A DNA stretch of 64,000 bases from an uncultured Armatimonadetes bacterium (GCA_963716175.1 OY970296.1:2816001-2880000), one strand, 5' to 3'. Positions 27,610 to 61,120 are shown, counted from the stretch's first letter. Translations and numbers: made by a program. The notes: generated by a model from the letters alone, not told the origin.

Positions 27610-27642
27610 GGTGGAGTGGGCCGATAAGCCGAGGTCGCGATT
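27610..27642 (-). repeat. Putative att site: 33-bp direct repeat containing an RNase P RNA (rnpB) 3'-end fragment
   Basis: Identical to 61088-61120; minus strand CTCGGCTTATCGGCCCACTCCACC resembles E. coli rnpB 3' end ..CCCGGCTTATCGGTCAGTTTCACC. Confidence 0.75.
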
Positions 27643-27645
27643 CAC

Positions 27646-27915
27646 CGGTGGAGGAACGGTGGAGGTTTGGTGGAGGATTTCGGGCGTGTCTTGCGGTTTT
27701 GGCGCGATTACGCGCTGGTTTCCAGGGCAGACGATGGTGCCGTTTCGCTAGGCGATTGCTGACAAAAAAGGCTCCCGCGGCTGCGCGAACGCGTGCTCGC
27801 CCCGACCCAGCTGCGGTGGAGGATCGGTGGAGGAACGGTGGAGGGTAGGTGCCGATCGCGGTGGAGGAACGGTGGAGGGTGCGGTGGAGGGGGCAGAGCG
27901 GGCGGTGGATGGTGG
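27646..27915 (+). repeat. Clusters of ~11-bp CGGTGGAGG(A/G) tandem repeats (arm-type/iteron-like)
   Basis: About 9-10 copies, e.g. CGGTGGAGGAT-CGGTGGAGGAA-CGGTGGAGGGT. Confidence 0.75.
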
Positions 27916-28047
27916 GGGGGAAGGGACCGGCGGATCACCCTCCCTGCGTGTTGCCAAGGTGTCCGGGGATATCGGCGTGTGTCTGGTAGCTGCCGCGCGT
28001 GGAACGGTGGCGGCCGGCTCGCGGCAGTGAGTGGAACGGGTCGCGGC

Positions 28048-29085
28048 TCAGCCCGCCGGCGGCTTGCGGGTTCGGCCGGGCCGCCGGTAGTAGGTGCGCT
28101 GCCGGGTAGCATCGCCACAGGCGGTGCTGCAGTACTGCTTGTTGGCGCGTCCGGGGTAGAACAACCGGCTGCAGCCCGGGCACTGGCGCAGCAGCTCACG
28201 TCGCTGCACGAGTTCCCCCAGCTGAAGATAGATCGGAGCCATCAGGTCGTGGAAGTGCACGACCCGGACGACGTCCAGATCCTCTCCACCGGAGTCGGCC
28301 TCCGGCGATCTTGGCGGAGTGTCAATGGGCCAGTAGATCCGCCATGACCTAGCGACGCGGGCCTCCGCTTCGGTGAGCTGGCGGGCAACCAGAGCCGCAG
28401 CCCACAGGCAGCAGTCCTTTCCACTCATCGGCTCGAGTCCGGCTGGCTCCCGGCCAGGCCCGGAGTCGCCTTCCGCAGTCACCGGGACCGGGAGCTGGGG
28501 GTCGGCGACATCGCGGAACAGCCTCCCCTCAACGATGTAGATGTCGGCTATTTGCTTCCCCACCGGCACCCCGCCCAGGAGGCGCCGCAGAGAAGGCAGG
28601 TCGTTCTGCCTCAGGCCGAGGTAGAGATCGTAGGTGAGCCGGAGCTCCCGCGCCTGCTCGCGGACCCACCACAGCGGCTCGCAGGCGAATCGGAACACCT
28701 CCTTGGGCAGCAGCCGCCGGTCGGTCGGCCGCAGGCGCGCCGCCCAGCTAGGGAGGGGCCCCTCATCGGTGTCGGCAACCCCTGCCAGCGGCCCATAGCG
28801 ACGGTAGAACGCGACCACCTCATCGTCCGAGGGAGACTGCTCGCGGCCGAACAGATGCATGACAGTGGTGAGAAGATCCCGCTCCTGCAGAGGCTGGTAG
28901 AGAGAGGAGTCGATCAGGTCTATGAGCGCAGTGTCTCCCGCACCCTTGAAGTACTCGACCATGCGGTGGTCGTCGACAACCCCGGTGGCAGGTGCCTCGC
29001 CCTCCCGCAGCCGCCGTAACCGGGCCTGAACCCCGTACTGGCCCCCTCTCGTCAGTTCCCGCGGTGTCTTCCGCTTATCTGCCAT
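28048..29085 (-). CDS. Protein with C-terminal CGNR-type zinc finger, putative regulator
   Basis: CPGCSRLFY...KQYCSTAC...RQRTYY. Confidence 0.7.
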   Translation of the reverse strand: MADKRKTPRELTRGGQYGVQARLRRLREGEAPATGVVDDHRMVEYFKGAGDTALIDLIDSSLYQPLQERDLLTTVMHLFGREQSPSDDEVVAFYRRYGPLAGVADTDEGPLPSWAARLRPTDRRLLPKEVFRFACEPLWWVREQARELRLTYDLYLGLRQNDLPSLRRLLGGVPVGKQIADIYIVEGRLFRDVADPQLPVPVTAEGDSGPGREPAGLEPMSGKDCCLWAAALVARQLTEAEARVARSWRIYWPIDTPPRSPEADSGGEDLDVVRVVHFHDLMAPIYLQLGELVQRRELLRQCPGCSRLFYPGRANKQYCSTACGDATRQRTYYRRPGRTRKPPAG

Positions 29086-29092
29086 CTGTCTC

Positions 29093-29169
29093 TCGCTAGA
29101 GAATTATTGATAACACACGTCGTCAGTCGCTAGGAAGCTATTGACAACACATCATTGGAGTCGTACCAT
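29093..29169 (+). promoter_or_regulatory. Sigma70 promoter for the terminase operon overlapped by a ~25-bp direct repeat
   Basis: TTGACA(29141)-N17-TACCAT(29164); TCGCTAGAGAATTATTGATAACACA / TCGCTAGGAAGCTATTGACAACACA. Confidence 0.6.
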
Positions 29170-29236
29170 ACAGCAGTTTATACCACAGTCAGCGGCCGGA
29201 GTCAAGGGAGAGGGACCGGCCAGGGAGATCACAGTC

Positions 29237-29884
29237 ATGTCCACAACACAGCAGCAACCACAGCCATGGGCGCAACTGCCGGGCGAGAGCGGACCCGCCT
29301 ATGAGGCCTTTCGCACCTTCCTGGAGCTGGGATCCAGGCGCAAGGTCGCGGAGGTGGTGCGCCGCTTGGGCAAGAAAGAGAGCCTGATCTGGCGCTGGGT
29401 CAGCCGTCACGACTGGCGGCACCGGGCATGGCTGTGGGAGGTGCGCCAAGCAGGGGAAGACGAGGCGGCCGTGCGCCAGCATCGCGAGGGGGTGCTACAA
29501 GAGCGGCTGGAGGATCTCGATCGCATGGGGCGGGCCTGCCTGGCCTTCTTTCGCACCATGGTGCGCCGGGACCCGGAGACCGGCGAGGTCAGCTTCGACG
29601 CCCGCTTCACTCCCCAGGTCGCGCTGCGGTTTCTCGAGCTCGCACTGAGAGCGCAGGGGGCCTTCGAGCGGCCGGCCGCTGAGGACAAGTCCGATGAGCG
29701 GCCGTCGGCCGACCTGTTTGGGCTGGCCGATGCAGAGCTGATGGAACTGATCGATCTCGCCCGAGAGCGGGCCGACCAACAAGACCAGAGAAAGGACGAG
29801 AGCAATGAGTCAGACCAGGGCAGCACGCAGCAGGAACAGCACGAGGAGGAAGACCGCGAGGAAGACCGGGCCGAGCGCGACTGA
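29237..29884 (+). CDS. Phage small-terminase-like HTH protein
   Basis: W..LPGES..AYEAF..FL.LG..R...V...GK....I.RW...H.W..RA motif, seen upstream of terminases; position in operon. Confidence 0.6.
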   Translation: MSTTQQQPQPWAQLPGESGPAYEAFRTFLELGSRRKVAEVVRRLGKKESLIWRWVSRHDWRHRAWLWEVRQAGEDEAAVRQHREGVLQERLEDLDRMGRACLAFFRTMVRRDPETGEVSFDARFTPQVALRFLELALRAQGAFERPAAEDKSDERPSADLFGLADAELMELIDLARERADQQDQRKDESNESDQGSTQQEQHEEEDREEDRAERD

Positions 29885-31133
29885 TCGCCTCCAGCTCGAC
29901 ATCACCCAGGTGGCGATTGAGCGGCTCCGGCCCTGGCCGGGCAATCCACGGGCGATGCCGGCCTCCGAGATGGAGAGCTTGCGCCGGTCGGTGTCTCACT
30001 GGGGGATGGTGGAGCCGTTGGTGGTGCGTCGCTCCGATCAGCTGGTGATCGGCGGGAATCAACGATTGGAAACAGCGAAGGCGTTGGGAATGGCAGCGGT
30101 GCCAGTGGTGTATGTCGAGCTGTCAGATGCCGAGGCGAAGGCGCTCAATCTTGCCCTCAACCGGATCCGGGGAGAGTGGGATCTGCCGAAGCTGGGGGAG
30201 CTGCTGGAGGATCTCCAGCGCCTGCCCGAGATCGACGAGAGCCTCACCGGCTTCAGCGGCGATGAAATCGACGCGCTGTTGGCCGAACTCGAACGCGATC
30301 GGGCCCCCGATCCCCGGGAGGAGAGCTTCCCGGAGGCGGCGGAGGCGCTGCAAGCATGGCGGGAGCAAGCCCCGACGAGAGTCAGCAAGGGAGAGCTATG
30401 GCAGCTGGGGCGGCACCGGGTCTACTGCGGGGATAGCCTGGCACCGGGAGGGCTCGAGCGTCTCTGCAATCGCGAGAAGGTCGACCTGGTGCTGACCGAT
30501 CCGCCCTATGGGATTTCGTATCAGTCGACGCTGGCAAGACGAGGCCGGCGTAAGAAGGCGATCGCCAACGATGGTCAGGAGGAGTTCGAGGGGTTTCTGA
30601 ATCGCGCGCTTCCTGCCATCAGATCGGCGATGAAGCGAGGCGCGGCCCTCTACTGGTTTGCCGGGGGTGGTGGAGGAGAGCCGGTGCTGGCGAAGGCCCT
30701 GCTCGCGATCAGCCAGCACTTCACCCTCCTCAATACCATTGTGTGGGATAAGGTAGATCCCGGGTTGGGCTGGCGATGGCGCCGAAGCTGGGAGGCCGTC
30801 ATCGAGGCCTCCGTAGGCCGGCCCCGGATCTGGCATGGAGGCACTGCTAGGCGCAATGTGCTGCGGTTCCCCCGTGCCATTCCCCAGAGCGAGGATCATC
30901 CCACCCCGAAACCGATCCCGTTGCTCGCCGAGCTCATCCTGGCGGCCGCTCCCGCCCGGGGCACCGTCCTTGACCCATTCGCCGGCTCCGGCTCCACCTT
31001 GATCGCGGCGGAGCGCACTGGCCGCAGCTGTCTGGCGGCGGAGTTAGAGCCGCGCTATTGCGATATCGCGCTCGCCAGGTGGGAGGCAGTCAGCGGAGGC
31101 CGCGCCCAGCGGCTGGAAGGCGGTGCGCGATGA
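29805..31133 (+). CDS. ParB N-terminal domain plus N6/N4 DNA methyltransferase (phage type)
   Basis: NPR..WGMVEPLVV..GNQRL; TDPPY; HPTPKP; LDPFAGSGS. Confidence 0.9.
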   Translation: MSQTRAARSRNSTRRKTARKTGPSATDRLQLDITQVAIERLRPWPGNPRAMPASEMESLRRSVSHWGMVEPLVVRRSDQLVIGGNQRLETAKALGMAAVPVVYVELSDAEAKALNLALNRIRGEWDLPKLGELLEDLQRLPEIDESLTGFSGDEIDALLAELERDRAPDPREESFPEAAEALQAWREQAPTRVSKGELWQLGRHRVYCGDSLAPGGLERLCNREKVDLVLTDPPYGISYQSTLARRGRRKKAIANDGQEEFEGFLNRALPAIRSAMKRGAALYWFAGGGGGEPVLAKALLAISQHFTLLNTIVWDKVDPGLGWRWRRSWEAVIEASVGRPRIWHGGTARRNVLRFPRAIPQSEDHPTPKPIPLLAELILAAAPARGTVLDPFAGSGSTLIAAERTGRSCLAAELEPRYCDIALARWEAVSGGRAQRLEGGAR

Positions 31134-32713
31134 CCACCGCTAATGCCCTGCCCAATGATGGCGATGGCTACCTGCGGCTGCTGGATCGCGCGCAAGAGGT
31201 GCTGTCCCTGCGGTCCGATCCCCGGCGCTGGATCGAGGCGAACCTGTGGCTGCGCAGCAAGGACCAGCGGATGGTGCCCTTTCGTCTCTGGCCGGCGCAG
31301 GCCCACTGGTATGAGCGTCGCTCCCACTGGGACGTCATCTTGAAGGCCCGCCAACTGGGCTTCACCAGTATCATCGACGGCTGCTTCTTCGCCGACACGG
31401 TGCTGCGGCCTAACACCACCTCGGTCATCGTTGCCCATGACCTGGACTCCAGCGAGAAGATCTTCGCCACGGTCCGGGGATTCTGGGAGCGGCTGCCGGA
31501 AGACGAGCGGAAACGCATCGGTGAGCCTCGCTATCTGACCCGCAGGGAGCTCTACTGGCCCTCCCTCAACAGCCGCTTCTGGGTGGGGACGGCCGGATCG
31601 GTTGCTTCCGGCCGGGGCCACACCATCAACAACCTGCACTGCTCGGAGTTCGCTTACTGGCCCGACCCGGAGCGGGCGTTGGCGGGACTGACGGAAGCGG
31701 TGCCCTTGAGCGGCCGGATCGTGATCGAGTCCACCGGCAACGGAATGGGCAACCCATTCCACGATCTCTGGATACAGGCAAAGCAGGGAGAGAACCCCTA
31801 CCGGCCTCACTTCTACCCTTGGTGGTGGGATCAGGGCTATCGGATGGCGGGCCCACCGTTGGGGGAGCTGATTGAAGAGGAGCAGCACCTCAGAGATACC
31901 TGCAATCTGGATGACGACCAGCTGCGGTGGCGGCGGGAGAAGAGGAAACACCTGCGCGATCGATTCGCCCAGGAGTACCCCGAGAACGATGGTCACTGCT
32001 TCCTGGCAAGTGGCCGCTGTTGCTTCGAGATGGCGCCACTGCTGGGGGCGCGGGCGCGCATCGCGGCCGAGCCGGAGCCGCAGGCCCTTTCCCATCTCTC
32101 GGATGAGGAGGGGAATCCCATCAGCCTGTCACCGGCGCGGCTGCTGGTGTGGCGCCAGCCGGAGCAGGGGAAGGAGTATGTGATCGGTGCCGATGTGGGG
32201 GAGGGCCTGGCCCATGGCGATCCCTCCGCCGCCTGTGTGCTGGACAGGGAGACAGGGGAGCAGGTGGCGGAGCTGCACGGGCGCATTGCCCCGGGGAGGT
32301 TCGCCCGGTTGCTGGCGGCGCTCGGGATGCTCTACCTTGGGGCGGAGCTGGCGGTGGAGTCCAACAACCACGGCCATGCCACCCTGGACGCGCTCCACAA
32401 CACCCTCAACTACTCGCCCCTGCACCGCTACCGGCGCTATGACCAATCGGGGCTGGCCGGGGAGGCGCTGGGCTGGCCCACCAACGCCCGCACCAAGCCG
32501 CTGATGATCGACGAGCTGGCGGAGGCAATTGCGGAGGGGCACCTGCTGATCCATTCAGAGGGGCTGGTGGATGAATGTCTCACCTTCATCACCACCGACA
32601 GCGGATCGCGGGAAGCCCAGCCCGGCAAACACGATGACCGGGTGATGGCAGCAGCCATCGCCTGGCAGGTGAGAAAGCGACCGTGGCCTCAGGTGTGGGG
32701 CTTTCAGGTGTAG
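31130..32713 (+). CDS. terL: Phage terminase large subunit
   Basis: ILKARQLGFTS (Walker A), LHCSEFAYW (Walker B), IESTGNG, YVIGADVGEG, VESNNHG, HDDRVMA; ATGA coupling to the methylase gene. Confidence 0.9.
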   Translation: MTTANALPNDGDGYLRLLDRAQEVLSLRSDPRRWIEANLWLRSKDQRMVPFRLWPAQAHWYERRSHWDVILKARQLGFTSIIDGCFFADTVLRPNTTSVIVAHDLDSSEKIFATVRGFWERLPEDERKRIGEPRYLTRRELYWPSLNSRFWVGTAGSVASGRGHTINNLHCSEFAYWPDPERALAGLTEAVPLSGRIVIESTGNGMGNPFHDLWIQAKQGENPYRPHFYPWWWDQGYRMAGPPLGELIEEEQHLRDTCNLDDDQLRWRREKRKHLRDRFAQEYPENDGHCFLASGRCCFEMAPLLGARARIAAEPEPQALSHLSDEEGNPISLSPARLLVWRQPEQGKEYVIGADVGEGLAHGDPSAACVLDRETGEQVAELHGRIAPGRFARLLAALGMLYLGAELAVESNNHGHATLDALHNTLNYSPLHRYRRYDQSGLAGEALGWPTNARTKPLMIDELAEAIAEGHLLIHSEGLVDECLTFITTDSGSREAQPGKHDDRVMAAAIAWQVRKRPWPQVWGFQV

Positions 32714-32763
32714 CCGCCAGCGGCGGGAAGTGCCGACCCCGCGCGTGCCCGGCAATGGGCACG

Positions 32764-32879
32764 CGCGCTTGTGGCGTCAGAAGATGCTATACCCTCTGCC
32801 AAGCGGCCTGGGCCCGAACCGGCGTTTGTGGCGCGAGAAGATGCTATGGCATTTGTCAAGCGGCCTGAGGCACCGAACT
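32764..32879. repeat. Two ~57-bp imperfect tandem copies of IS110 right end plus target half
   Basis: TTGTGGCGTCAGAAGATGCTATACCCTCTGCCAAGCGGCCTG vs TTGTGGCGCGAGAAGATGCTATGGCATTTGTCAAGCGGCCTG. Confidence 0.7.
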
Positions 32880-34055
32880 GCGTGTCATGAGATGGTTGGC
32901 TTCGTAGTCCGGATCAAAGGGCCGGCCCGTCTTGAGGAGGGCGAAGATGATCCGGAGCAGCTTGCTCATGCAGGCGATGATTGCTGCCTTGGGACGCTTG
33001 CCCTCGGCCAGTTTCCGAAGGTAGTACTGTCGCAGGACGGGGTTGCGATTGCGTACCGAGAGGGCGGCCAGGCAGAGGGCATGACGCAGGGCAGCAGGCC
33101 CACACTTGGATAGCTTGACCTTCCCCGCGAAGCGCCCTGACTGCCGGAACCGGGGATTGAGGCCAGCGAAAGCGATTGCTCGGGTGTCCGTATCCAGCTG
33201 CTCGACGGGGAGCTCAGCCAGGATCACTGGGACGGTGGCGGCGCCCAGGCCCTCGATGGTGAAGAGCAGATTCCCCTGCACTTGCTCCGCGATGGTGTTC
33301 TCCAGCGCCGCGAGACTGCGCTGCAGCTGGCGGATCGCCGCCACCAGCTGCCGCACCACCACGGCGTCGGTTGTGGTACCTTGCTCTCCTGGGATCGATC
33401 TGGCTGACGCCACCAGACGGTCGGCCCGCAGCTTTCCCACCCGGCGGGTGTTCGCTTTCAGCTGTGCCGCTCTGTCTGGCCGCGCCCGTGCCAGCATGCC
33501 TCCGGTGGGGTATCGATCGAGCACCGCCAACGCGCCGTAGCAGTCAAGGCGGTAGAACCCGCGCTCCACACTGGGGTTGACGCGCTCCAGCAAGCTGTGG
33601 AGCAGGTTCACCTGAGCCACCAGACTCGTCAGCAACGTGTGGCGGCTGCGAGTGAGCCGGGCCAGAGCTGCTTGCTCTGCAGCCACCGTTGCGCGAGGTC
33701 GGAGGGCTCGGCAGTAGCGAGCCAAGACGACGGCATCCACCCGATCGGTCTTCGTGCGCGCCATCAACACCTTGGCGAAGTGATGGCTGGAGCGAGCATT
33801 GACCACGCTCACCGTAAAGCCGGGCCGGGAGCGCAGGAACGCTGCCAGCCGGTGACCGTAGTTGCCGGTGGCTTCCAGGCAGACATGCAGCTCGCGGCCG
33901 TCGGGCAGCTTCGCCAGTGTGGTCAGCAGGCTCTCATAGCCAGCCGCATCATCGGTGAATTCGAAATCCTTCGTCCGCAGCTCGCCGTCTCCGTCCACCA
34001 CCGCCGCCATATGGCGGCCCTTGCTCACGTCGATCCCCACGAAGTACTGGCGCAT
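32856..34055 (-). CDS. IS110 DEDD recombinase
   Basis: VGIDVSK, CLEATG, KTDRVDA, AFAGLNP..SG (catalytic Ser region); RBS before MRQYF. Confidence 0.93.
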   Translation of the reverse strand: MRQYFVGIDVSKGRHMAAVVDGDGELRTKDFEFTDDAAGYESLLTTLAKLPDGRELHVCLEATGNYGHRLAAFLRSRPGFTVSVVNARSSHHFAKVLMARTKTDRVDAVVLARYCRALRPRATVAAEQAALARLTRSRHTLLTSLVAQVNLLHSLLERVNPSVERGFYRLDCYGALAVLDRYPTGGMLARARPDRAAQLKANTRRVGKLRADRLVASARSIPGEQGTTTDAVVVRQLVAAIRQLQRSLAALENTIAEQVQGNLLFTIEGLGAATVPVILAELPVEQLDTDTRAIAFAGLNPRFRQSGRFAGKVKLSKCGPAALRHALCLAALSVRNRNPVLRQYYLRKLAEGKRPKAAIIACMSKLLRIIFALLKTGRPFDPDYEANHLMTRSSVPQAA

Positions 34056-34074
34056 TCTCCTTGCCTCCACTATC

Positions 34075-34300
34075 ATGGACGTGCGGTGGCCGGGGCCTCC
34101 TGGCTGCTCAGTCCTAACCCTCACTCGGCTCAATGTGTGGTCGTCTGCCACAAGATGCTTGATCTGGGCTTGAGGCTGGGCCGGGAGCGACGTTCTTCTC
34201 GGTTGGGTCAAGGCCCGAGTCGGAATAGTGTCGTCTCCCGGCTCACCGCCTCCCCCAACTTGCCTAACGGCCACTCCCCAATCCTGCATGAAGCCACCAC
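34075..34300 (-). ncRNA. Predicted IS110 bridge RNA (ends approximate)
   Basis: Target loop TCCGACT..CGAGAAG within stem 34181-34241 matches target TCCGA-CT-TCTCG; donor loop AGCATCT..TGAG matches donor AGCAT-CT-CG. Confidence 0.75.
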
Positions 34301-34476
34301 CATCCATGATACGAGTCGGATTCGCGCGGCCGGCGATGCCGAAGTGATACTCTCGGGGTGATCTTACCGTGGGCTGACAGGCATAGGTTGCTTTGCCACC
34401 GGGATGGACGGTCGCGGAGAAGGCTCTCGACCGAGGTCCGTCTGCTGCTGCGGTGGGCCGCTGTCGATCGCTGCGG

Positions 34477-48106: not shown

Positions 48107-48147
48107 GGCGCGCGATGGCACGAGCAGGAGCAGAGGGAGGAACTGAG

Positions 48148-51100
48148 ATGCTCAGCGGTCATGTGTGGCGGAGGGCTGTCCCCTGGGTGATGGCCGCGCT
48201 GCTGGTGGGCGGGGCGATGCCCCTGTTCGCCTGGCCGAGCGGCCGGCCTACGAACCCCACCGGGGGGCCAGGTCCTGCCCGAAGTTGTGGGGCCAGCAAT
48301 CCCGGACTCGCGGGCGGAGACGAGTGTGGAGGCAAGCCGGTAGACAGCATCAATACCTATACTGGGAACCTGACCATCAGTGATATGCCGGTTTGGTATT
48401 ACAGCGTGGGGGATGCCATACCGTTTGTGATCAGCTTCAACTCGAAAAGCGGGCGAACGGGAGGACCGCTGGGGGCCAAATGGACCCACAGTTACGATGT
48501 CCGGATCGTGGACGAATCCCCGAACGGGGCCTGGGTGATGGAGGGGAACGGGTGGGAGAACTACTTCTGGCTGAACCCCGACACTGGCTTCTATGACTCG
48601 CAACAGAACGTATTCGACAAGCTGGAGGCCGAGGGGTCAGGCTGGAAGCTGACCCGGCCCGATCAGCACAAGCTTCACTTCGACTCGACCGGGAAGTTGA
48701 CAAGCATTCAGGATGCAGACGGCCTCACCTGGACCCTGGCGTACAGCGGCAGCGTGCTCAGCACAGTCACTGACCCGAAGAACGGTCAGACCACTTTTGC
48801 CTACACGCGCGCCCGGCTAACTCAGGTGATGATGCCGGGGGGCATACATGCCGATTTCACCTACGACTCCAGCAAGCGGCTCTCGACCGCCAAGGACGCC
48901 GCAGGGCATACTTACACCTTCTACTATAGCGGCACGGACACCAAGGTCGCCAGCTTGAGAGACCCGTCGGACCGCCTGGTGCGCTACTACTACAACGGGG
49001 GGCAGGTGTACTACACCGAGATCGTCAGTCCATCCGGGTTGGCCGTTCACTATGACTTCTACCTGCCTGGCATCGGGCCCAACCCGGCCGGCAGCGGGCA
49101 GCTGTATGTGGATATCACCGAGACTAAGGATGGCGCCGACCGGATCACCCGACACATCTACGAGAACACCGACGACCCGGGCAATGGGCGCTACTTCGGG
49201 ACGCTGCTCTCCGTGATCAAGGACGTGGGCGGGGTGGCGGCCACTCAGGCCTACGCCTACGATTCCGAGCTGCGCCTGGTCAGGTACCGAGACAGCTATC
49301 AGCCCGAGACCGGCGGTAAGTCGCATCGCCATTTCTTCTACTACGATGATCTCGACAATCCGAGCCTGGTTACCAAGTACATTGACCCACAGAACTCTGA
49401 TGCTAGCCCCAGTGACACCGGCACGCCATCTCCTACCTGCCCGGGGTGGAAGTTCGAGTACGACAATAACGGGGACGGCGCCCACCTCGGCCGTCTCACC
49501 AAGATCACCCACCCGGAGTACCCAGCAGCTCGGTACACGACGTTCTCCTACTTCTCCAGCACCAGTCGGCTGTACTCGGTCACGGTGAACGACCTGGACC
49601 GGAACGGCCTTCCCTATGAGCATACCACTTGGTTCAACTGGGGGCCGGACTACCAACTCAGCTACATCTGTGACGCGCTCGGCAATGAGACCAGGATCTA
49701 CTACGACAGCAATGGGTACCTGGATTACGTGGACCTGCCGGGCGGGAATGTCCCGCCGGCCAAGGACCGGGATTTCACGGCCGACGCGGCGGGCAACATC
49801 ACCGCGGTCACCGATGGCAATGGAAATACCACCAGCTACCAGTACGATGGCCTCCACCGGCTGCTCCAGATCACCTATCCCGACGTCGGCAGCGGGCAGA
49901 AGACGAAGACGTTCACCTGGAACTGCTGCGGGCTAGACCTGGTGACAGATGAGAACGGGGTGCAGACCAAGTACGAGTACGACCAGTACACCAAGCGCCT
50001 GTGGAAGGTCCACGAGGACTACACCGCCCTCAACTACGTTACTGAATACGGCTACGACGAGGTGGGCAATCTGAAGACGGTGAAGGATGCTCGTTCCAAG
50101 ACTACCACTTACTTCTACGATGGCGCGGACCGCAGGTATCACGCGGATTACCCCGACTCCACCCATGAGAGCTGGACTTACCGGGACGACGGCCGGGTTT
50201 ACAGCCACACCGATGCCCGGGGCCGGCAGACCGTCTACCGCTACGACGCCGACGACCGGCTCTGGGGGCCGGCCGGATCGGGGTATGTGGCGATCAACTA
50301 CCCCAATGACACCGATGTCAGCATCAGCCGGGATGCCGACGGGCTGGTGACCAGCTTCAGCGATGCCAGCGGGACGACTGCGATCAGCTACTACCCCAGC
50401 GGCTGGGTGAAGCAGGTGACGAATGGGTACGGGCGGACAGTGACCTATGACTACAATGATGTAGGCGATGCCGCCAAGGTCTGGAGCCAGCTCAGCCCGG
50501 AGCGGTCGTACGCTTATACCTACACCAGCCGCAACCAGACCGAGACCGTGACCGACTGGACCGGGGCGCTGGTAAGTAGCTTCCTCTACGACAATGGCGG
50601 GCGTTTGACGCGGATCACCCGGCCGGGGAGCTATGTCGCCTACGAGTACAATGCCCGGGATTGGGTGACGCGGGTGAACAACCACACCACCGGCGGGGTG
50701 CAGATTCACGATGTGCGGTATCTGTACACCTGGGGCAGCAACCCGGGCCACACCGGCAATCCGGGGCTGAAGCTGGAGTACATGCCCGGGGTGCTGCACG
50801 GCTACAACACCATCTACGAGCACGACGCCCTGGGGCGACTGACCCGGGACACCAAGGGGCTGTGCTGCGGGGCCACCCAGTACTCGGAGAACTTCACCTA
50901 TGACGGGGTGGGCAATCGCCTCACCCGGCCCATGTGGGGCGGGACCAGTGTCACCTACACCTATGATAACAACAACAAGCTGGTCTCGGCCTCAGGGGAT
51001 GGCCTGAGCGCGAGTTTCGGCTATGACAGCAACGGCAACGTGAGCAGCGTTTCCGGGAGCATGTTCGGGAATTGGAGCTTCACCCACAACGACGAGAATC

Positions 51101-52095
51101 GGCTGGTGTCGGTGACCTCGGCCGGGGGCACGGACAGCTATCTGTACAACGCTCTGGGGCAGCGGATGCGCATGGCGCGGGGCAACGGGCTCACCTGGCG
51201 CTTCCAGTACAACGGGGAGCGGACCGTGGGGGAGACCAATGATGCCAATGTACCCCTGGTGTACCGGGCCACCGTGAACGGGAGCTACTATGCGCCCTCG
51301 CTGCGGAGCGCGACGGAGGGGAGTTGGTGTCCGAACTCGCCGCTGGTGAGGTACCCGGCGTACGATGCGGGGGGGAACTTTGTAGAGCTGGTGGACCCGA
51401 ACGGGAATGCCTGCGACCGGCATGCCTTCGACGCCTTTGGGGTACTGACTTCCGACCCTTCGCCGCAGCTTTACTCCTGGGGCGGGGCCTGGGGGTACAT
51501 GGAGGAGCGCCCGGGGAACGGATTGGTGCAGCTGGGCGCGAGGTGGTACTGGCCGGAGATCGGCCGGTTCCTGGAGCAGGACCCGGACGGGGATGGGGTC
51601 AACTGGTACGCCTACGCCGACAACAACCCCCTGACCGGGATTGACCCGGAGGGCCAGCAAATATACGCGCCCTGGAATCCCGAGTCCACTTGGTACCACG
51701 TCTTCAGTAACGACGAGGGGGCTTGGTCCGAATTCCCGAAGGGCGCAGCGGCGGCTGCCGACTTCGCATATCCCTTCGGCGATCCCTTCGCTGCCAGAGG
51801 GGTCTACAATCCGTGTGAGCAATGGGTGCCCGGCACGCGAATCATGACGGGCATTGCTATCGCAGCGGCAGGTTCGGCGGCTGCGATTGCGGGGGCAGAG
51901 GCTGCGGGCGTTCTCAGATTTCCAGAACACGTTGGCGGCTTTGAATTGAACCTTGGTAGAAACCTGCGGATCGGATGGCACCGTTTGCCCACCAAAGGAA
52001 GCTGGCGGGTAGCTTGGGCGCGGGGTAGAAGCCTGCTCCATGCGCATTTGAGAGCGTTTGGTCGGGGCATCGGCAGACACTGGCCATGGCAATAG
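48148..52095 (+). CDS. rhs: Rhs/YD-repeat polymorphic toxin with signal peptide
   Basis: GGAGG RBS; signal peptide; PVD..TGNL; many YD repeats; core end RWYWPEIGRFLEQDP..NWYAY.DNNP...DPEG; ~146-aa tip. Confidence 0.9.
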   Translation: MLSGHVWRRAVPWVMAALLVGGAMPLFAWPSGRPTNPTGGPGPARSCGASNPGLAGGDECGGKPVDSINTYTGNLTISDMPVWYYSVGDAIPFVISFNSKSGRTGGPLGAKWTHSYDVRIVDESPNGAWVMEGNGWENYFWLNPDTGFYDSQQNVFDKLEAEGSGWKLTRPDQHKLHFDSTGKLTSIQDADGLTWTLAYSGSVLSTVTDPKNGQTTFAYTRARLTQVMMPGGIHADFTYDSSKRLSTAKDAAGHTYTFYYSGTDTKVASLRDPSDRLVRYYYNGGQVYYTEIVSPSGLAVHYDFYLPGIGPNPAGSGQLYVDITETKDGADRITRHIYENTDDPGNGRYFGTLLSVIKDVGGVAATQAYAYDSELRLVRYRDSYQPETGGKSHRHFFYYDDLDNPSLVTKYIDPQNSDASPSDTGTPSPTCPGWKFEYDNNGDGAHLGRLTKITHPEYPAARYTTFSYFSSTSRLYSVTVNDLDRNGLPYEHTTWFNWGPDYQLSYICDALGNETRIYYDSNGYLDYVDLPGGNVPPAKDRDFTADAAGNITAVTDGNGNTTSYQYDGLHRLLQITYPDVGSGQKTKTFTWNCCGLDLVTDENGVQTKYEYDQYTKRLWKVHEDYTALNYVTEYGYDEVGNLKTVKDARSKTTTYFYDGADRRYHADYPDSTHESWTYRDDGRVYSHTDARGRQTVYRYDADDRLWGPAGSGYVAINYPNDTDVSISRDADGLVTSFSDASGTTAISYYPSGWVKQVTNGYGRTVTYDYNDVGDAAKVWSQLSPERSYAYTYTSRNQTETVTDWTGALVSSFLYDNGGRLTRITRPGSYVAYEYNARDWVTRVNNHTTGGVQIHDVRYLYTWGSNPGHTGNPGLKLEYMPGVLHGYNTIYEHDALGRLTRDTKGLCCGATQYSENFTYDGVGNRLTRPMWGGTSVTYTYDNNNKLVSASGDGLSASFGYDSNGNVSSVSGSMFGNWSFTHNDENRLVSVTSAGGTDSYLYNALGQRMRMARGNGLTWRFQYNGERTVGETNDANVPLVYRATVNGSYYAPSLRSATEGSWCPNSPLVRYPAYDAGGNFVELVDPNGNACDRHAFDAFGVLTSDPSPQLYSWGGAWGYMEERPGNGLVQLGARWYWPEIGRFLEQDPDGDGVNWYAYADNNPLTGIDPEGQQIYAPWNPESTWYHVFSNDEGAWSEFPKGAAAAADFAYPFGDPFAARGVYNPCEQWVPGTRIMTGIAIAAAGSAAAIAGAEAAGVLRFPEHVGGFELNLGRNLRIGWHRLPTKGSWRVAWARGRSLLHAHLRAFGRGIGRHWPWQ

Positions 52096-52571: not shown

Positions 52572-54063
52572 TGCAGTGGTTACTTCGCCGTAGAACCGCC
52601 CCAGCCTTGCTCTGACGGCATCCCATGGTGTATCGTGGGCACTCCATTTCCCTGGAGGGTGAACCCACGTGGAAGCAGCTGAAACTGCGGTCTGCCCGGT
52701 GATGAAGGCGGTGTTGTTGAGTGGTCGGTGGGCGGGCCGGAGCAGGCAGCTGGGCCTGGAGCAAGCGGCGAAGGCTTCGGGCGATGGGGCGGAGGTGTAG
52801 GCCGAGAACGCCATACTCCGGGACACCATCGAATTTCTGGTTGAGCGGCTTGCCCGTGCGGAGCGGCGCCTGAAGGCCGCCCACATCCGGAAGCCCTACT
52901 CCCTGGCAGAGCGGCTCCATATCCTGTGGTGTATCGAGTACTTCGGCATCTCCCGGCGGCAGATTCCCAAGTGCTTCGGCGTGGCGCGTTCCACGGTCTG
53001 GCGCTGGCTGCGACGGCTGCAGGATGGGATCGGCTTGTGCGGGCGGAAGTCTCAGGCTTCGGTGCGCCGGACGTCTGAGGCACTGGAGGGGCTGGTATGG
53101 GAGCTGGCATCGGCGAATCCTGGCTGGGGGCGGCGCCGTATCTCCTTGGTGCTGGGGACACTGGGCATCTTCCTGGCGGCGTCCACGGTGCGCAACATCT
53201 TGCTCCGTCCTCGACCGCGACCCGAAGGCACACCCGCGGCGGCCGGAACGCCTGAAGAGAAGCAGCCGCGCCAGATCATCGCCCGCTATCCGAACCACGT
53301 GTGGAGCGTGGATCGCACTCGGGTGTGGTGCTGGCGCATCTGGCCCACCTGGGCGTTGGTGGCGATCGATCACTTCTCCCGAAAGGTCGTCGCCAGTTGT
53401 CACCTGGAGGGCCCGAATGCCGACTGGGTGGTGGAGGCGCTGGAGGAGGCGTTTCTGCGTCATGGAGCGCCCAAGCACATCATCACCGATCAGGAAGGCG
53501 TGCTCACCTCCGAGGTGTTCCGTGACTTGCTCTGGCGATGGGAGGTGAAGCAGCGATTCGGCGCAGTGGGCAGGCATGGCTCCATCGCGGTGACCGAACG
53601 GGTCATTCGGACATTGGAGTACGAGTGGTTGCGTCGCGTACCGGTGATCAAGGGGCTGGCTCACCTGGAGATCCTGCTGGCCGAGTTCGCCTGCTACTAC
53701 AACTCCTGGCGGCCGCACACGACCTTGGAGGGCGCGGTGCCAGAGCGTATCCACGCCGGAGAGCACTGGCAGAAGCCGGCGCGGACGGCGAAGGCCGTCC
53801 CCGCTCACACCGAGCGGCACTTCTCCCCCGAGACCCGCGTCACCGCATTCCGCCTCGCGGCCTAGCTGACTCCATAACCCCTGCCGTGGCACCGCGCTCG
53901 CCTTTGTCTCCGCAGCCCAGGAGCAGGGCCGCTATTGCGCACGGCTCCGTCCCCCAACCCAAGCTGAACAACGGTCTCACCTGGCGGACCATGGGACAGA
54001 CGCAGGACGCGAGGCCACCGCCGCAGAAGCCCGGAGCGGTACTACAGCAACGTGACCACTACA
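52572..54063 (+). mobile_element. IS481-like element, relative of 42713-44200
   Basis: IRs TGCAGTGGTTACTTCGCCGTAGAACCGC / TGTAGTGGTCACGTTGCTGTAGTACCGC. Confidence 0.8.
52669..53865 (+). pseudogene. rve transposase with in-frame TAG at 52798-52800
   Basis: Colinear with 42810-44009; a Gln codon is replaced by TAG. Confidence 0.85.
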
Positions 54064-56643: not shown

Positions 56644-56731
56644 GGTGCAGCCCTCCCTTCCAGGCCTGTTTCCCTCCCGTCGCTCCGGAACTGCGCTGCC
56701 GAAGCCCTGCTGACCGGACGATATAGAGTGT

Positions 56732-56955
56732 TGTAGAGCGTCAGCGAAGGTGGGACAAAAGGGGGTGCTGGGTTAGCTACACCTCCGGCGTTCCAGCGCT
56801 GATGCTCTCGCATCTCCCCCTCCGCCTTCGGTAGCACTCCCGGCGCGCGACCAGGCTGCGGATCTACAATCCTTTCGCCGGGCTAGAATCTCCTCCCTTC
56901 TCCCAAACCAGACAGCGTCCGGGGTGACCCTGTGGAGCGCTTCGTGGTAGGGGTG
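56732..56955 (-). pseudogene. IS481/IS3-family 3' fragment and terminus (same family as 11712)
   Basis: TGTAGAGCGTCAGCGAAGGTGGGACA; YHEALHRVTPDAVWFGRREEILARR. Confidence 0.7.
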
Positions 56956-57121
56956 CCGGCCTCTCTGCAGAGGCCTTCACACAGCCGCTTGTGCTCGTAA
57001 CATTGGTTCGCGGTGGACTCCGGACTTGAGCTCAGGCGCCCCAAAGGCGGTGCCACCGCTGTTTCGCAGGTGCAGTCTGTCTCACAGTCGCCGAAGACGT
57101 ACAGCAGCTGGTAGAATCATC

Positions 57122-58638
57122 CGTGCCCATGTTAAATGGCGGTGGGACACCGCTGACAGCCCCGTAGGCTTGTCTGCGAGCCTGAGACATTCTATCATAT
57201 AGGACCTTTGGGGCGGCGCCTTCGGGCGCCGTTCCCCTTTTTGGAGCGTGATGCTGTGGAGGTCTTGCGAACAGCCGCTGCCCTGATGGTTCGATCCCTG
57301 GTGTTGAGTGCCCAGTCTGCAGGCCACCAGCGGCTGCTCTGGCTCCAGCAGAGCGCCGCCGTGGGCGGAGACGTGGGTGAGGTGGCCCGGCTGCGGGATG
57401 AGAATCGCCAGCTGCAGTGGGAGAACCGCCTCCTCAAGGCACGCCACGCTGACGTTCCCTGCCGGAAGCGCTACTCTCCCCTGCAGCGGCTCCACATCCT
57501 ATGGCACATGGCCTACTACCGCATTCCCAGGAGCCGGGTGAAGGAGCACTTCCTGATTGCCAACTCGACTCTGTATCGCTGGCTGCATGCGGCCCAGGAG
57601 GGCGATCTGGGTGAGCGCAAGAGCAAGCTAGAGAGCCCCAGGAAGACGCCCGCCGAGCTCGCCCGGATGATCTGGGACGTTTTCGAAGCGGATCCGCACT
57701 TTGGCCGCAAGCGTATTGCCAACACCCTCTGGTTGCTGGGTGTGTTCGTGGCGGCCTCGACGGTCAGGAATGTGCTGCTGCAACCCAAGCCCAAGACCGC
57801 GCCGGCCGCGGCAAAGGCCCAGGAGGCGCCCGCCGTGCCCCGCCAGATTGTTGCCCGCTACCCGAACCACGTGTGGAGCGTGGACCGCACGCGGGTGCTC
57901 CGCTGGGGACTCTGGCCCACTTGGGTGCTGGTCGCCATTGATCACTTCTCCCGCGCGGTGATGGTCGTGGTGCCTCTGGAAGGACCTAACGCAGGCTGGG
58001 TAGTGGAGGCGATGGAGGAGGCCTTCGTCCAGCACGGAGCTCCTCGGCACCTCGTCAGCGACCAGGAGAAAGTCTTCATCTCCGAGGTGCTCGCTGACCT
58101 CCTCTATCAGTGGAATGTCAAGCACCGCCTCGGTGCGGTGGGCAAACGCGGTTCTATCGCGGTCACCGAGCGCGTCATCCTGACCCTGAAGTACGAATGG
58201 CTCAAGCGCGTTCCCGTCATCCGCGGACTCGATCACCTGGACCGATTATTGCGCGACTTCGCTCTCTACTACAACGACTGCCGCGGGCATACCACGCTGG
58301 GGGGCGCGGTCCCCACAGTGAGGTATCGGGGTGAGCGCTGGGATAAGCCGGAGAAGTCAGCCAAGAGACTGCCGACCAACCTGGAGCGCCGCCTCTTCCC
58401 CGATACTCAGATCACCGCCTACCGACTCGCGGCCTGAGCTCTCTGCCGACCGCGGCCGGTGTCGCTTCGCCGTCGGACGTGCGCGCCTTCGCGGTCACTT
58501 GCCGTCCCACCGGATGCCGCGATGGCCCAGCCATGTCCCATCGTCGTGGTCACGCGCTCCGCCGCCCCGCCACCCCTGGGGGCCGGAGCCGGCCTGGGCT
58601 ATCCAAGTGGTGTCCCACGCCCACCTAACACCCACACA
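57122..58638 (+). mobile_element. IS481-like element
   Basis: Degenerate 30-bp IRs CGTGCCCATGTTAAATGGCGGTGGGACACC / TGTGTGGGTGTTAGGTGGGCGTGGGACACC. Confidence 0.65.
57256..58437 (+). CDS. rve DDE transposase
   Basis: WSVD..AIDHFSR..VSDQE..VTER; ends YRLAA. Start uncertain (frame open from 57208). Confidence 0.85.
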   Translation: MEVLRTAAALMVRSLVLSAQSAGHQRLLWLQQSAAVGGDVGEVARLRDENRQLQWENRLLKARHADVPCRKRYSPLQRLHILWHMAYYRIPRSRVKEHFLIANSTLYRWLHAAQEGDLGERKSKLESPRKTPAELARMIWDVFEADPHFGRKRIANTLWLLGVFVAASTVRNVLLQPKPKTAPAAAKAQEAPAVPRQIVARYPNHVWSVDRTRVLRWGLWPTWVLVAIDHFSRAVMVVVPLEGPNAGWVVEAMEEAFVQHGAPRHLVSDQEKVFISEVLADLLYQWNVKHRLGAVGKRGSIAVTERVILTLKYEWLKRVPVIRGLDHLDRLLRDFALYYNDCRGHTTLGGAVPTVRYRGERWDKPEKSAKRLPTNLERRLFPDTQITAYRLAA

Positions 58639-59062
58639 GTCTTGCATGCTCTGCCAGCGCTCGAACCACTCGAGCCAGTTCACCTGTGTATCTGCAGTCC
58701 CCATTGCCCCTAGTTCCTGCGTGCCTTACGGGGAATCCCGCGGGCGGGGCGATCATACCAGAAGCCAGGGAGGGCAGGCAATGTCACTGTCCGCGAACGC
58801 GCGCTGTCAGCGCTGGCAGAGATGTGCCATCCAGGCCTCACTCCCCGTCGTCTGGAGCTTGCCCGAGTGGAGCCAGCTGTGATGGTCAAACGGGGATGCC
58901 TAGTCCTTGGGTGCCTCGTGGGGGCAATACGGCCCGAGGATCGTTCGGCGTGTGCGCAGAAGAACACAGCCATAGATCCGGGGAATCACTCCATTGGCTT
59001 AGCAGGGCCTGGCCTGGGGGGCGGGAGTGGTTCTGCCCAGTGGGCGGTTCAAGGAGGCCGGC

Positions 59063-59545
59063 ATGGGAAGGCTGGAAGAGGCGGTTCGTTCTGAGATCCT
59101 GCGCTTGGTGAGGAGGGAGCTGCGAGGCGTGGTGCTCCCTCTTGGCAAGGAGGTACGCCAGCTGAAGCGGGGCCTGGGGCGGCTCACCAAGGGCGTTGCC
59201 AGGTTGGAGCGAGTGGTGGCGGCGCAAGTACGAGAGGCCGAGGCCAGGAAGGATCGTCTGGAGCTCTCTGAGGAGGAAGCAAGAAGGGCTCGGCTGTCGG
59301 GGCGTCTGATCCGGGCACTTCGCACCCGGTTGGGGATCACTCAAGGTCAGCTGGCTGTGCTTGTGGGGGTGAGCACGCGCGGGGTGACGCGGTGGGAACA
59401 GGGAGAGATCTCGCCGCGGGGTCAGAACCGGGCGACGCTGGTGGCACTGCGCAAGCTGGGCCGGCGCGATGTCAGGCGGATGCTGGCACAGAAGGCCGCG
59501 GCCCTACCCAGCAAGAGACGACCGCGCAGAGGCAAAGGCGGCTGA
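59063..59545 (+). CDS. XRE-family HTH regulator with coiled-coil N-terminus
   Basis: AAGGAGG RBS; IRALRTRLGITQGQLAVLVGVS...VTRWEQG..SP. Confidence 0.85.
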   Translation: MGRLEEAVRSEILRLVRRELRGVVLPLGKEVRQLKRGLGRLTKGVARLERVVAAQVREAEARKDRLELSEEEARRARLSGRLIRALRTRLGITQGQLAVLVGVSTRGVTRWEQGEISPRGQNRATLVALRKLGRRDVRRMLAQKAAALPSKRRPRRGKGG

Positions 59546-59778
59546 GCACGCTGGGACAGGGGCTACCAGTGAGAGAAGAGCGGCCCCTGCGCCCCTGCGC
59601 GGCAAGGGCCGGTGGTCCGGCCTAACGGCGAAGGTGGGCACCCCGGGGAGGCCGGTCAAGACTGCGGTTCGGGACCCACGTTGTGCGGACAGGGCAGGCG
59701 CTGAGGAAGGCCCGACCGCCCGGGTCGTTCCAGGCGGTCGTGGAGGAGGCGAAGGGTTCACCCTGATTGAGCTGGTGG

Positions 59779-60792
59779 TCAGGCTATACCCGCGGGTGTG
59801 TCCGGACGATGGAGGGCATGGGAAACTTCCGTGGCGGTATCCGGCTGAGGCAGTGGCTCTGGTCGGCTCGGCTCTGTTCCCAGGAGCCCGTTCAGCTTCC
59901 CCACTGCCGCCTGCTTCGTCCGCGTGTCCGAGTGCAGGTACTTTGCGGTGGTTTCCAGCTCGGAATGCCCCAGTAGCTCCTGCACGGTGCGGATGTCCAC
60001 GCCGTTGCGGATGAGGTGGGTGGCGAAGGTGTGCCGCAGCTTGTGAGGCGTGATTCCTTGGCCGGCTAGGCCGGCCTTCTGGATCACGATCTTCAGCATG
60101 CGGTTGATGCAGCGGCCGTGAATGGGACGGCCTTGCCAGGCGCTCACGAACAGGTGTCGGCTCTGGGTCTTGGTGCGGTTGGGCAGGTAGGCCTGGATGG
60201 CTTCCACGGCCTGGTCGGTGAGCGGGACCACCCGCTCCTTGTCCCCCTTGCCCCGGATGAGGAGCTGGCGGTTCTCCAGGTCGATGTCGTCCAAGGTGAT
60301 GCCCACCGCCTCCGATCTGCGGATGCCGGTAGACAGCAACAGCACCACCGCGCACTTGGTCCAGGGCGAGTCGGCGGCCGCGATCAGTTGCTGGGCCATC
60401 TCCTCGCTCAGGAACACCGGCACGTACTCAGAGACCCGGGGCAGGGGGAGTCGCCGGGCGGGGTTGCCCTGGAGGTATCCCATGTCCTGCAGGAACCCGT
60501 AGAGGGAGGAGAGGCAGGCGTACTTGCGCCGCAGGGTGAGCGGGGCTGAGCCCTTCCGGCTGACCCCAAACTGGATGATCTGCTCCCGCCTGATCTCTGC
60601 CGGAGGGGGGACCCGGCCCAGTCGGCTCTCCAGGAACTCCCGGAACATGCGCAGATCCGCGGCGTAGCCGCGTACGGTCAAGGGGGAGTAGCTGCGGTAG
60701 TGAGTGAGGTAGTCCAGGAACTCCTTGACCGCCTGATCGTAGCTGATGGCGGCCGCAACTTCTTCAGGCTCTGCTGTTGGTGAGCTGGTCAT
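59779..60792 (-). CDS. XerC/XerD-like tyrosine recombinase
   Basis: GIRRSE, RGKG, HKLRH, LLGH, TTAKY; close paralogue of the genes at 25561-27449. Confidence 0.92.
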   Translation of the reverse strand: MTSSPTAEPEEVAAAISYDQAVKEFLDYLTHYRSYSPLTVRGYAADLRMFREFLESRLGRVPPPAEIRREQIIQFGVSRKGSAPLTLRRKYACLSSLYGFLQDMGYLQGNPARRLPLPRVSEYVPVFLSEEMAQQLIAAADSPWTKCAVVLLLSTGIRRSEAVGITLDDIDLENRQLLIRGKGDKERVVPLTDQAVEAIQAYLPNRTKTQSRHLFVSAWQGRPIHGRCINRMLKIVIQKAGLAGQGITPHKLRHTFATHLIRNGVDIRTVQELLGHSELETTAKYLHSDTRTKQAAVGKLNGLLGTEPSRPEPLPQPDTATEVSHALHRPDTPAGIA

Positions 60793-61087
60793 ACTGACGC
60801 CTCCCATGGCGCGTGTGCTGGGTGATTCATCACTTGGAGGCCGCCAACAAGTCCAGGCCTTGAGTGGGCTCTTTTTCCCTGCTTATGTGACACTTTGCAG
60901 ACGAGGCCGAAGGGGCGAAAGAGCTCGCAAATCGCTGGCTTTTCTGGCTCTCGGAAGAGGCACGGCGAGCAAGCGCCAACAGGGGTAACGCGAGGCACCG
61001 GCCGGGTTCACCGGACACCTCGATGAGCGCCAGAAAAGCTAGCAATCATCGAGCTTTCTCAGGGATAGGGGAGGAGAGAGGAAAAGA

Positions 61088-61120
61088 GGTGGAGTGGGCC
61101 GATAAGCCGAGGTCGCGATT
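61088..61120 (-). repeat. Putative att site, second copy of the rnpB-3'-like 33-bp repeat
   Basis: GGTGGAGTGGGCCGATAAGCCGAGGTCGCGATT, identical to 27610-27642. Confidence 0.75.

Follow-up and report, generated by a model that had tools for sequence, protein, structure and literature searches.

Evidence for tandem integrative islands directed at the 3′ end of rnpB, the RNase P RNA gene, in an uncultured Armatimonadetes bacterium

A 64,000-bp stretch of DNA from an uncultured Armatimonadetes bacterium (G000:C1:2816001-2880000, hereafter the window) contains two copies of a 33-bp direct repeat, GGTGGAGTGGGCCGATAAGCCGAGGTCGCGATT, which very probably mark the junctions of tandem integrative islands targeted to the 3′ end of rnpB, the gene for RNase P RNA. 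The source genome G000 is a single contig of 4,560,930 bp with 66.2% G+C. A preliminary description of this DNA, made from the sequence alone, had reported the identical repeats with a spacing of 33,478 bp, and a whole-genome pattern search allowing up to 3 mismatches bore this out while recovering a third copy at genome 2961778-2961810, 84.7 kb to the right of the window's second copy. All three matches are exact and on the plus strand. The reversed pattern, used as a control, had no match in the genome, and the chance occurrence of an exact 33-mer in 4.56 Mb is negligible. The same description had placed recombinase genes to the left of each window copy, and short tandem repeats, a regulator, a terS-like gene and a ParB-methylase gene to the right. 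Matches to PF00589 on the left, and 11-bp-phased short repeats (hereafter iterons), a regulator-like gene, a terS-like gene and a ParB-methylase gene on the right, agree with this arrangement, to which a terL-like gene can be added (Table 1). In the window itself, no Rfam family scored above threshold and ARAGORN found no tRNA or tmRNA gene.

Searching the whole genome with Infernal revealed one intact class-A RNase P RNA gene (RNaseP_bact_a, RF00010; 282.9 bits, E = 3.6e-93, for a gathering score of 100 bits), with a match spanning model positions 1-367. It occupies genome positions 3034214-3034609 of the minus strand and is separated from the right end of the window by 154 kb, rather than lying just outside. 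A full minus-strand rnpB to the right of the window had been predicted, along with its two ends, and the gene indeed starts GGAGTGGGCC and ends ...CAAAACTCGGCTTATCGGCCCACTCCAC as foretold. The proposed derivation of the repeat from the rnpB 3′ end is likewise borne out, the last 23 nt of the intact gene, CTCGGCTTATCGGCCCACTCCAC, being identical to the core of the repeat. Exactly four copies of this 23-nt sequence exist in the genome, all in one orientation: one terminates rnpB and each of the three repeats contains another. The best of the remaining sites differ at 4-5 positions. The 33-bp repeat is composed of this rnpB end and 9-10 nt, GTCGCGATT, from the end of the adjoining element; in all three displaced copies both the core and these 9-10 flanking bases are exact. 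In the Rfam alignment, the P1 3′ strand accounts for the last ~11 of the 23 core nt. For the first 8, CUCGGCUU, pairing is possible with AAGUCCGAG near the rnpB 5′ end if one U is bulged; we take this pairing to be helix P4 of the catalytic core, a pseudoknot not included in the Rfam structure line. By reference to Escherichia coli M1 RNA, the 23-nt core would presumably comprise the P4 3′ strand, a short linker and the P1 3′ strand. The G000 rnpB also has an extra hairpin of ~31 nt (GCGACAU...AUGUCGC; L001 1531-1575, genome ~3034244-3034288) that separates the 3′ strand of P2 from the conserved ACAGAA region, the latter reading CCAAAAC in this genome. Relatives are without this insertion, which resembles an optional P19-type helix.

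Leftward from rnpB on the plus strand, the array consists of island D (72.4 kb), island C (84.7 kb), island B (33.5 kb) and remnant A, a 2.1-kb recombinase module only. Island B is the whole island within the window, from 27634 to 61088. Minus-strand tyrosine recombinase genes lie to the left of every core, at 80-280 bp from it, and the far end of the next island lies to the right of every displaced fragment. The preliminary description had proposed at least three related elements stacked at rnpB, one of them to the left of 27610 and one to the right of 61120. The stacking stands, while the details have to be corrected: the left unit is only the 2.1-kb module, devoid of an intact distal attachment (att) site, and the single right-hand element turned out to be two whole islands (84.7 and 72.4 kb) between the right repeat and rnpB. 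The G+C content is 64.0-64.2% in islands B, C and D and ~63-65% from ~2.795 Mb onward, for 66-68% on both flanks of the array.

Seven recombinase open reading frames (ORFs), all open and full length, were found in the array. They form a pair, which we call IntX and IntY, in remnant A, to the left of the third repeat (genome 2959751-2961630) and directly behind rnpB (3032188-3034067, with IntX at 3033093-3034067 and the rnpB 3′ end at 3034214), and a single recombinase, IntB, in island B. The three IntX copies are 93-94% identical to one another, IntY is 63-67% and IntB 61% identical to IntX, and IntB shares 59-89% identity with metagenome loci that have a single recombinase. These 308-347-aa proteins match PF00589 with 146.8-159.8 bits (cut-off 27.1) and have SAM-like core-binding domains (PF02899, PF13495) beside the catalytic domain; Pfam found no separate N-terminal arm-binding domain of the lambda type in IntX, IntY or IntB. 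Tyrosine recombinases share the catalytic motif R, K, H-x-x-R, H/W, Y. Alignment A1 retains the R..K..HxxR..H..Y positions, with invariant RRSE, GKGxK, HxLRHT and LGH and a tyrosine within ARYLH or AKYLH in the five full-length sequences. The array recombinases are predicted to catalyse the recombination. The closest solved structure is XerD (1a0p). Scores of 220.7-229.5 bits for TIGR02224 (XerC, cut-off 335.15) and 193.7-202.8 bits for TIGR02225 (XerD, cut-off 329.6) fall under the equivalog cut-offs, so that we consider the proteins Xer-like and not XerC or XerD. The IntX stop codon overlaps the IntY start codon in ATGA, downstream of a purine-rich GGAGGAGGGAG, and IntY follows IntX in 19 of the 20 IntX-type metagenome loci that have room downstream (our count), the exception being L182. 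The site itself needs no pair, since the single IntB type uses the same core.

The preliminary description had called for a survey of homologous recombinases for adjacency to rnpB, and homologues do occur beside rnpB or a displaced 3′ fragment of it in relatives and in metagenomes. The relatives are named Armatimonadota or Candidatus Hebobacteria in their records and provided 17 full-length rnpB loci, 14 of them with ~1.5 kb of downstream flank. A recombinase 60-68% identical to that of G000 lies directly downstream of rnpB and co-directional with it in three of these 14 (G002, G008 and G011, from three other genera of the family); the other 11 flanks gave one weak match (G020) and ten none, G006 being an example of an rnpB without recombinase within 1.5 kb. 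The contigs of three further relatives end within 275 bp of the rnpB 3′ end. Taking recombinase loci on genome contigs instead as the starting point, the core (up to 4 mismatches) was found upstream on the same strand in 13 of 22, with a whole rnpB in three. The core is present five times in G013, on five contigs, four times in G011 and twice in G002. G020 represents a second family within the class; here the recombinase gene that lies 74 bp after rnpB is apparently broken, and a one-mismatch copy of the rnpB end is found 1.92 Mb away in inverted orientation, preceded by a two-cluster iteron arm and a ParB-methylase gene. A candidate in Chloroflexota (L049), in which a 32%-identical recombinase is convergent with rnpB, was dropped, the rnpB tail being unrepeated in the 12.8-kb locus.

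Several features of the relatives' genomes are worth recording in their own right. G011 has two full-length rnpB copies 7 kb apart (4610269-4610631 and 4617273-4617635; L256, G011:C1:4606000-4620000), separated by a BlaI-like repressor gene and an IS21 insertion sequence (IstA/IstB). The upstream copy keeps the ancestral upstream neighbour and has lost the P1 3′ strand after CTCGGCGTATCGG, a break point that may mark the place of strand exchange in the core. Cores in opposite orientations far from rnpB (G011:C1 281386 and 382524 versus 4561824 and 4610271; G020:C1 1964389 versus 3885179) suggest large chromosomal inversions between island copies in G011 and G020, two relatives with complete genomes. 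Many draft contigs of relatives end at or inside rnpB (G007:C103, G013:C10, G015:C142), and rnpB is cut in G003, G005, G010 and G024, as would be expected if repeated att/recombinase modules break short-read assemblies.

The association of core and recombinase extends to metagenomes. Among the best 80 of 519 metagenome relatives of the recombinase (53-92% identity), 56 loci had usable upstream sequence and 24 had none. The core is located upstream on the same strand in 51 of the 56, mostly 83-330 bp from the recombinase gene, and belongs to a full rnpB in 14 loci, to an rnpB cut by the contig start in 9 and to a fragment following the far end of an island in 28. Three loci from three assemblies (L206, L207 and L208) share 1,300 bp at 100% identity, starting at the core and reaching into the recombinase gene, and have different sequences to the left of the core: an intact rnpB in L206, a far end with GTAGAGG-type iterons in L207 and a far end with GGTAGCG iterons in L208. 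They break exactly at the 5′ edge of the 23-nt core, which is what site-specific recombination at this core would predict. One element with three left neighbours also means that the order of the array varies in nature. Four of 23 listed sediment metagenome runs were aligned to window 57000-64000 and gave short pieces of related organisms, none spanning the stretch. Two contig joints start at window 61124 and 61126. Several pieces follow the window as far as 61126 and from there either diverge or resume 1.8-2.4 kb further on (window 61124-61127), which fits other islands with the same end sequence.

The far end of each island has a characteristic arm. Starting from the core, it is made of GTCGCGATT, three 8-mers 11 bp apart, a spacer of ~130-170 bp and a second cluster of three to six 8-mers; the regulator-like gene, terS (phrog_6299), a ParB_N-methyltransferase fusion gene and terL (phrog_2) follow. 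We inspected 27 loci for the core and iteron part of this layout: 23 show it clearly, 2 are ambiguous and 2 lack it. Typically the core is followed by 8-10 conserved nt (GTCGCGAT, GTACCGAT or TTGTCGAT), by three iterons from ~+13 and by a second cluster at ~+180 to +260, with iteron sequences that vary from element to element. In G000 each island has its own iteron, namely GGTGGAGG for B, GGTRGCGG for C and RGTAGAGG for D. Since C and D differ in their iterons but hardly at all in IntXY, the recombinase itself is unlikely to be the iteron reader. We also considered that the iterons might be recognition sites of the terminase. This is less likely because no 11-bp iterons were found within 10 kb of terL in terL-related phages of the IMG/VR database, and because islands of Hebobacteria possess iterons although a terminase module is missing from their vicinity, where one of them instead encodes a glycoside hydrolase and an acyltransferase. 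The iterons thus travel with the att site, and we infer that they are binding sites for an accessory protein, such as a recombination factor, of the att region.

A whole-genome scan found only six 11-bp-phased iteron clusters, five in the far ends of B, C and D and one inverted. The latter (2797341-2797373) lies ~46 kb further left, beyond remnant A, and is followed by AATCGCGGC, then by CTCGGCTT and then by diverged sequence; a second decayed inverted junction lies 553 bp beyond the first. We read these junctions as the traces of older islands whose distal end would have inverted and decayed, in which case everything between ~2.797 and 3.034 Mb would be island-derived, probably including the leftmost 25 kb of the window. 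The similarity among the modules of A, C and D ends ~50-100 bp beyond IntY. A block of ~6.6 kb is shared at 90-97% identity between genome 2798293-2804936, left of the window, and 2895509-2900330, in island C.

In the mechanism that we propose, each island would carry its own copy of the 23 nt as the core of its attachment site (attP), beside which lies an Xer-like recombinase, either a single IntB or a translationally coupled IntX-IntY pair. Recombination with rnpB would split the gene, the island's 23-nt copy would restore the rnpB end, and the old end would be displaced to the far side of the island. Repeated insertions would then stack islands at rnpB, with the displaced fragments as junctions between neighbours. 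The anatomy of the array, the match between core and rnpB, the recombinase family, the recurrence in many contigs and the variable junctions are observed; the order of insertion and any present mobility of the islands belong to the proposal. A more ambitious version would hold that an Xer-like recombinase clade specialised on rnpB, that IntX and IntY act as a hetero-oligomer, that an island-encoded factor reads the iterons, that the capsid-less islands are a new kind of large helper-dependent satellites and that whole arrays move or are packaged together; taken as a whole, we find this doubtful.

Islands B, C and D share a packaging module. Their methylase-terL regions are 68-72% identical in DNA and their terL proteins 57-61% identical, and, together with the differing iterons and cargo, this divergence indicates that the three islands are separate acquisitions. 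The genes terS, methylase and terL are intact in all three, and the genome has only three terL copies, all in the array. The island B terL is 56-64% identical to terL of IMG/VR contigs of 30-84 kb (loci L062-L077). Downstream of terL, these contigs continue with genes for portal, minor head, scaffold and major capsid proteins. When the array was compared to 16 viral loci by tblastx, a noisy comparison, only the three methylase-terL regions matched all 16. The sole structural-gene match in G000, 54 aa of a minor-head protein, lies at ~1.96 Mb, well away from the array. Within 10 kb of terL, the IMG/VR relatives had neither the core nor a homologous recombinase, and pattern scans of IMG/VR for intact phages with attP returned a single 10.5-kb contig, the same contig as L142. 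Intact tailed prophages were considered and rejected for B, C and D, neither portal nor major capsid genes being present beside the terminase. A packaging module of phage lineage without these genes indicates that the islands are prophage-derived and not intact prophages; they are most likely defective prophages, and possibly helper-dependent.

Table 1. Coordinates of predicted features in the window, counted from its first nucleotide.
Feature	Position	Strand	Evidence or remark
IntY of remnant A, Xer-like tyrosine recombinase	25561-26487	-	PF00589, E = 7e-47
IntX of remnant A, core-adjoining Xer-like tyrosine recombinase (maximal ORF)	26484-27527	-	PF00589, E = 7e-43
Recombinase-side arm (P′) of IntXY-type module	27528-27609	-	near-identical sequence directly behind intact rnpB
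Putative att junction 1	27610-27642	-	displaced rnpB 3′ fragment, 23-nt core 27611-27633, plus GTCGCGATT 27634-27642
Island B iteron cluster 1, three GGTGGAGG sites 11 bp apart	27646-27680	+	repeat family D10
Island B iteron cluster 2, ~six GGTGGAGG sites	27814-27890	+	repeat search and iteron scan
Regulator-like protein with C-terminal CGNR zinc finger (borderline), island B	28048-29085	-	zf-CGNR, 23.8 bits for a cut-off of 24
terS-like, island B	29141-29884	+	phrog_6299, E = 8e-15
ParB_N-DNA methyltransferase fusion, island B	29805-31133	+	N6_N4_Mtase 2.8e-26, ParB_N 6.6e-9, phrog_498 1.7e-101
terL-like large terminase, island B	31058-32713	+	phrog_2, E = 9.5e-31
IS110-family transposase just after terL	32856-34307	-	DEDD_Tnp_IS110 and Transposase_20
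Island B cargo	34477-59545		Pfam scans
IntB, sole Xer-like tyrosine recombinase of island B	59779-60807	-	PF00589, E = 4e-45
Putative att junction 2	61088-61120	-	same build as junction 1, core 61089-61111
Island C iterons, GGTRGCGG	61126-61381	+	two clusters, 61126-61160 and 61293-61381
Regulator-like protein, island C	61514-62545	+	weak HTH_AsnC-type match, 23.6 bits, under the cut-off of 27
terS-like, island C	62613-63269	+	phrog_6299, E = 2.2e-16
ParB-methylase, island C	63247-64000	+	runs off the window; 71% identical to the B copy (tblastn); terL beyond

Several results weigh against the targeted integration at rnpB proposed here. Remnant A has no intact distal core within 5 mismatches of 23 in a whole-genome search, and half-site searches for its distal att returned only the two decayed inverted junctions. 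In blastn comparisons, A, C and D share 91-93% identity over their 2.1-kb IntXY modules, and homologous recombination or gene conversion may therefore have shaped the array. Related IMG/VR phage proteins used as tblastn queries detected no portal, scaffold or capsid homologue in G000, and the islands carry IS110 and rve transposases; given both, the particular island copies of G000 may no longer be mobile. In 5 of the 56 informative metagenome loci, and in L041 among the genome contigs, the recombinase occurs without the core. Different genera have little gene order in common around rnpB; G008 alone resembles G000, and this in its upstream flank only, which precludes a clean empty-site comparison. 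No excision product, circle junction or empty site was seen in the short sediment-metagenome Logan contigs that served for this search, which amount to at most 0.25 of the sampled words, for att sites more than 20 kb apart. Finally, all data come from assemblies of uncultured organisms.

How else could the repeats be explained? A fortuitous resemblance to rnpB, or a motif for regulation or termination that has nothing to do with rnpB or recombination, has practically no chance of being correct given that the exact 23-nt rnpB end is found four times on one strand, with no other site closer than 4-5 mismatches, and that, of 56 informative metagenome loci, 51 have a recombinase adjoining the core. 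If a single ancestral island had been multiplied by segmental duplication or homologous recombination, in place of separate site-specific insertions, this would account for the strong identity of the IntXY modules; we nevertheless deem it very improbable since the methylase-terL regions of B, C and D are so much more divergent in DNA and protein, iterons and cargo differ between islands, island B has a different, single recombinase and the same junction build recurs in dozens of unrelated contigs.

The alternative that deserves the most serious attention accepts that the islands entered rnpB but supposes that they did so long ago and are now immobile defective-prophage remnants, the repeats being scars without present function. 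The insertion sequences, the lack of any portal or capsid homologue detected in the genome, the missing distal att of remnant A and the inverted decayed junctions at ~2.797 Mb all speak for such a fossil array. On the contrary, the seven full-length recombinase ORFs, the exactness of the three cores with their flanking bases and the intact terS, methylase and terL of three islands are at odds with prolonged decay, as is the fact that closely related elements switch partners in natural populations. On balance we hold a fossil array to be a real possibility, although not the probable one. A different view of the same islands would make B, C and D helper-dependent phage satellites that possess the packaging module only and use the capsids of a helper, rather than decayed prophages. 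It is in keeping with the fact that, of all the genes of the phage lineage, three diverged islands each retain just an intact terS/ParB-methylase/terL, at corresponding ends, and that portal, head and capsid genes come right after terL in the related IMG/VR phages. Yet the islands, at 33-85 kb, equal or exceed the related phage contigs in size (30-84 kb), no helper is known, the genome has no other terL and no capsid homologue, the IS110 element right after the island B terL suggests decay, and the iterons go with the att site and not with the terminase. Satellites of this kind therefore appear unlikely, and for B, C and D we favour decay over a satellite-like lifestyle.

Apart from the packaging module, the islands carry varied cargo, of which we scanned a sample drawn from the ~150 ORFs called in the array with a crude caller based on G+C by codon position. 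Island B encodes GAF-HD-GYP, radical SAM, TPR, RHS-repeat, PD40 and HTH_3 proteins, a BlaI/BlaR-like pair and rve transposases; the sampled part of island C encodes a secretin, an AraC regulator and a DUF6785 protein, and that of island D glycosyltransferases, cell-wall hydrolases and RHS proteins. Large RHS-repeat proteins with DUF6531, in island B (window 48115-52095) and in island D (L058 1333-3255 and the following 2031-aa ORF), are probably polymorphic toxin loci carried as cargo. A homologue of the island B regulator, 39.5% identical, is located at the matching position in L047. The sequence beyond the IS110 element of island B matches the sequence right after the terL of island C. Several repeats extend to the left part of the window. 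rve-type transposase genes that are 70-86% identical are found at window 42810-44009, 52981-53865 and 57208-58437 in island B and at 8766-10061 on the left. A 220-bp repeat of 83-88% identity lies at window 11712-11931 and 56732-56950, beside a BNR-repeat gene and a PD40 gene. A paralogous pair of prepilin-type N-methyl/DUF1559 and DUF6785/DUF6784 genes is located at window 15936-19327, left of remnant A, and at L053 5720-8994, in island C.

Targeted integration at the rnpB 3′ end, if correct, would make RNase P RNA a regular target of integration within one bacterial class, with a dedicated recombinase clade. Up to five att cores occur in one genome, and ~190-237 kb (4-5%) of G000 would have been built at the rnpB site. 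rnpB could thus serve as a new anchor gene for island-finding software, and islands at this site would explain the frequent assembly breaks at rnpB in these organisms. Small Xer-like recombinases acting on a defined 23-nt site in a universal, essential gene are also candidate tools. The array raises the question of how a strand of the catalytic core of a ribozyme came to serve also as a recombination site. We found no literature report of rnpB as an att site, although the TIGER/Islander database or supplementary files may list such islands; in the portions of the literature that we drew on, rnpB was mentioned only as a phylogenetic marker or in annotation lists.

That elements insert at the 3′ ends of genes for stable RNAs and thereby regenerate them is textbook knowledge for tRNA and tmRNA genes. 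Unlike these targets, the core described here presumably spans the P4 and P1 3′ strands of a ribozyme. The array recombinases resemble XerC and XerD in having a SAM-like N domain and a catalytic domain, and one island type encodes a coupled, related pair. They differ from XerC and XerD in scoring under the equivalog cut-offs, in having their genes at island ends by rnpB and not at a dif site, and in that a single IntB type uses the same core, a pair not being required by the site. The tailed phages of IMG/VR (L062-L077) share with islands B, C and D homologous ParB-methylase and terL genes in the same order; in contrast to the islands, they have genes from portal to major capsid and, within 10 kb, no homologous recombinase, rnpB core or iterons.

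Strand-biased circularizing integrative elements encode more than one tyrosine recombinase and are comparable to the IntXY islands in having two such genes. These elements transpose among sites in Gammaproteobacteria (PMC9345347, PMC10214605), whereas the rnpB islands would use one RNA gene and regenerate their target. Phage-inducible chromosomal islands and other phage satellites (PMC10111431) combine an integrase with a partial packaging module and no capsid genes, as do islands B, C and D; the latter depart from typical satellites by being far larger (33-85 kb), by having both terS and terL and by their insertion sequences, which suggest decay. The closest parallel is provided by islands and prophages of the Islander/TIGER type, which insert in the 3′ part of tRNA and tmRNA genes (PMC4383910). 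Like the rnpB islands, these have a tyrosine recombinase beside the regenerated target, an island-borne gene 3′ end, a displaced fragment at the far end and tandem arrays at one gene. The rnpB islands are set apart by their target, by their host, an uncultured Armatimonadota lineage, and by small Xer-like recombinases with no arm-binding domain detected, to which are added the recombinase clade, the coupled pair and the iteron arm.

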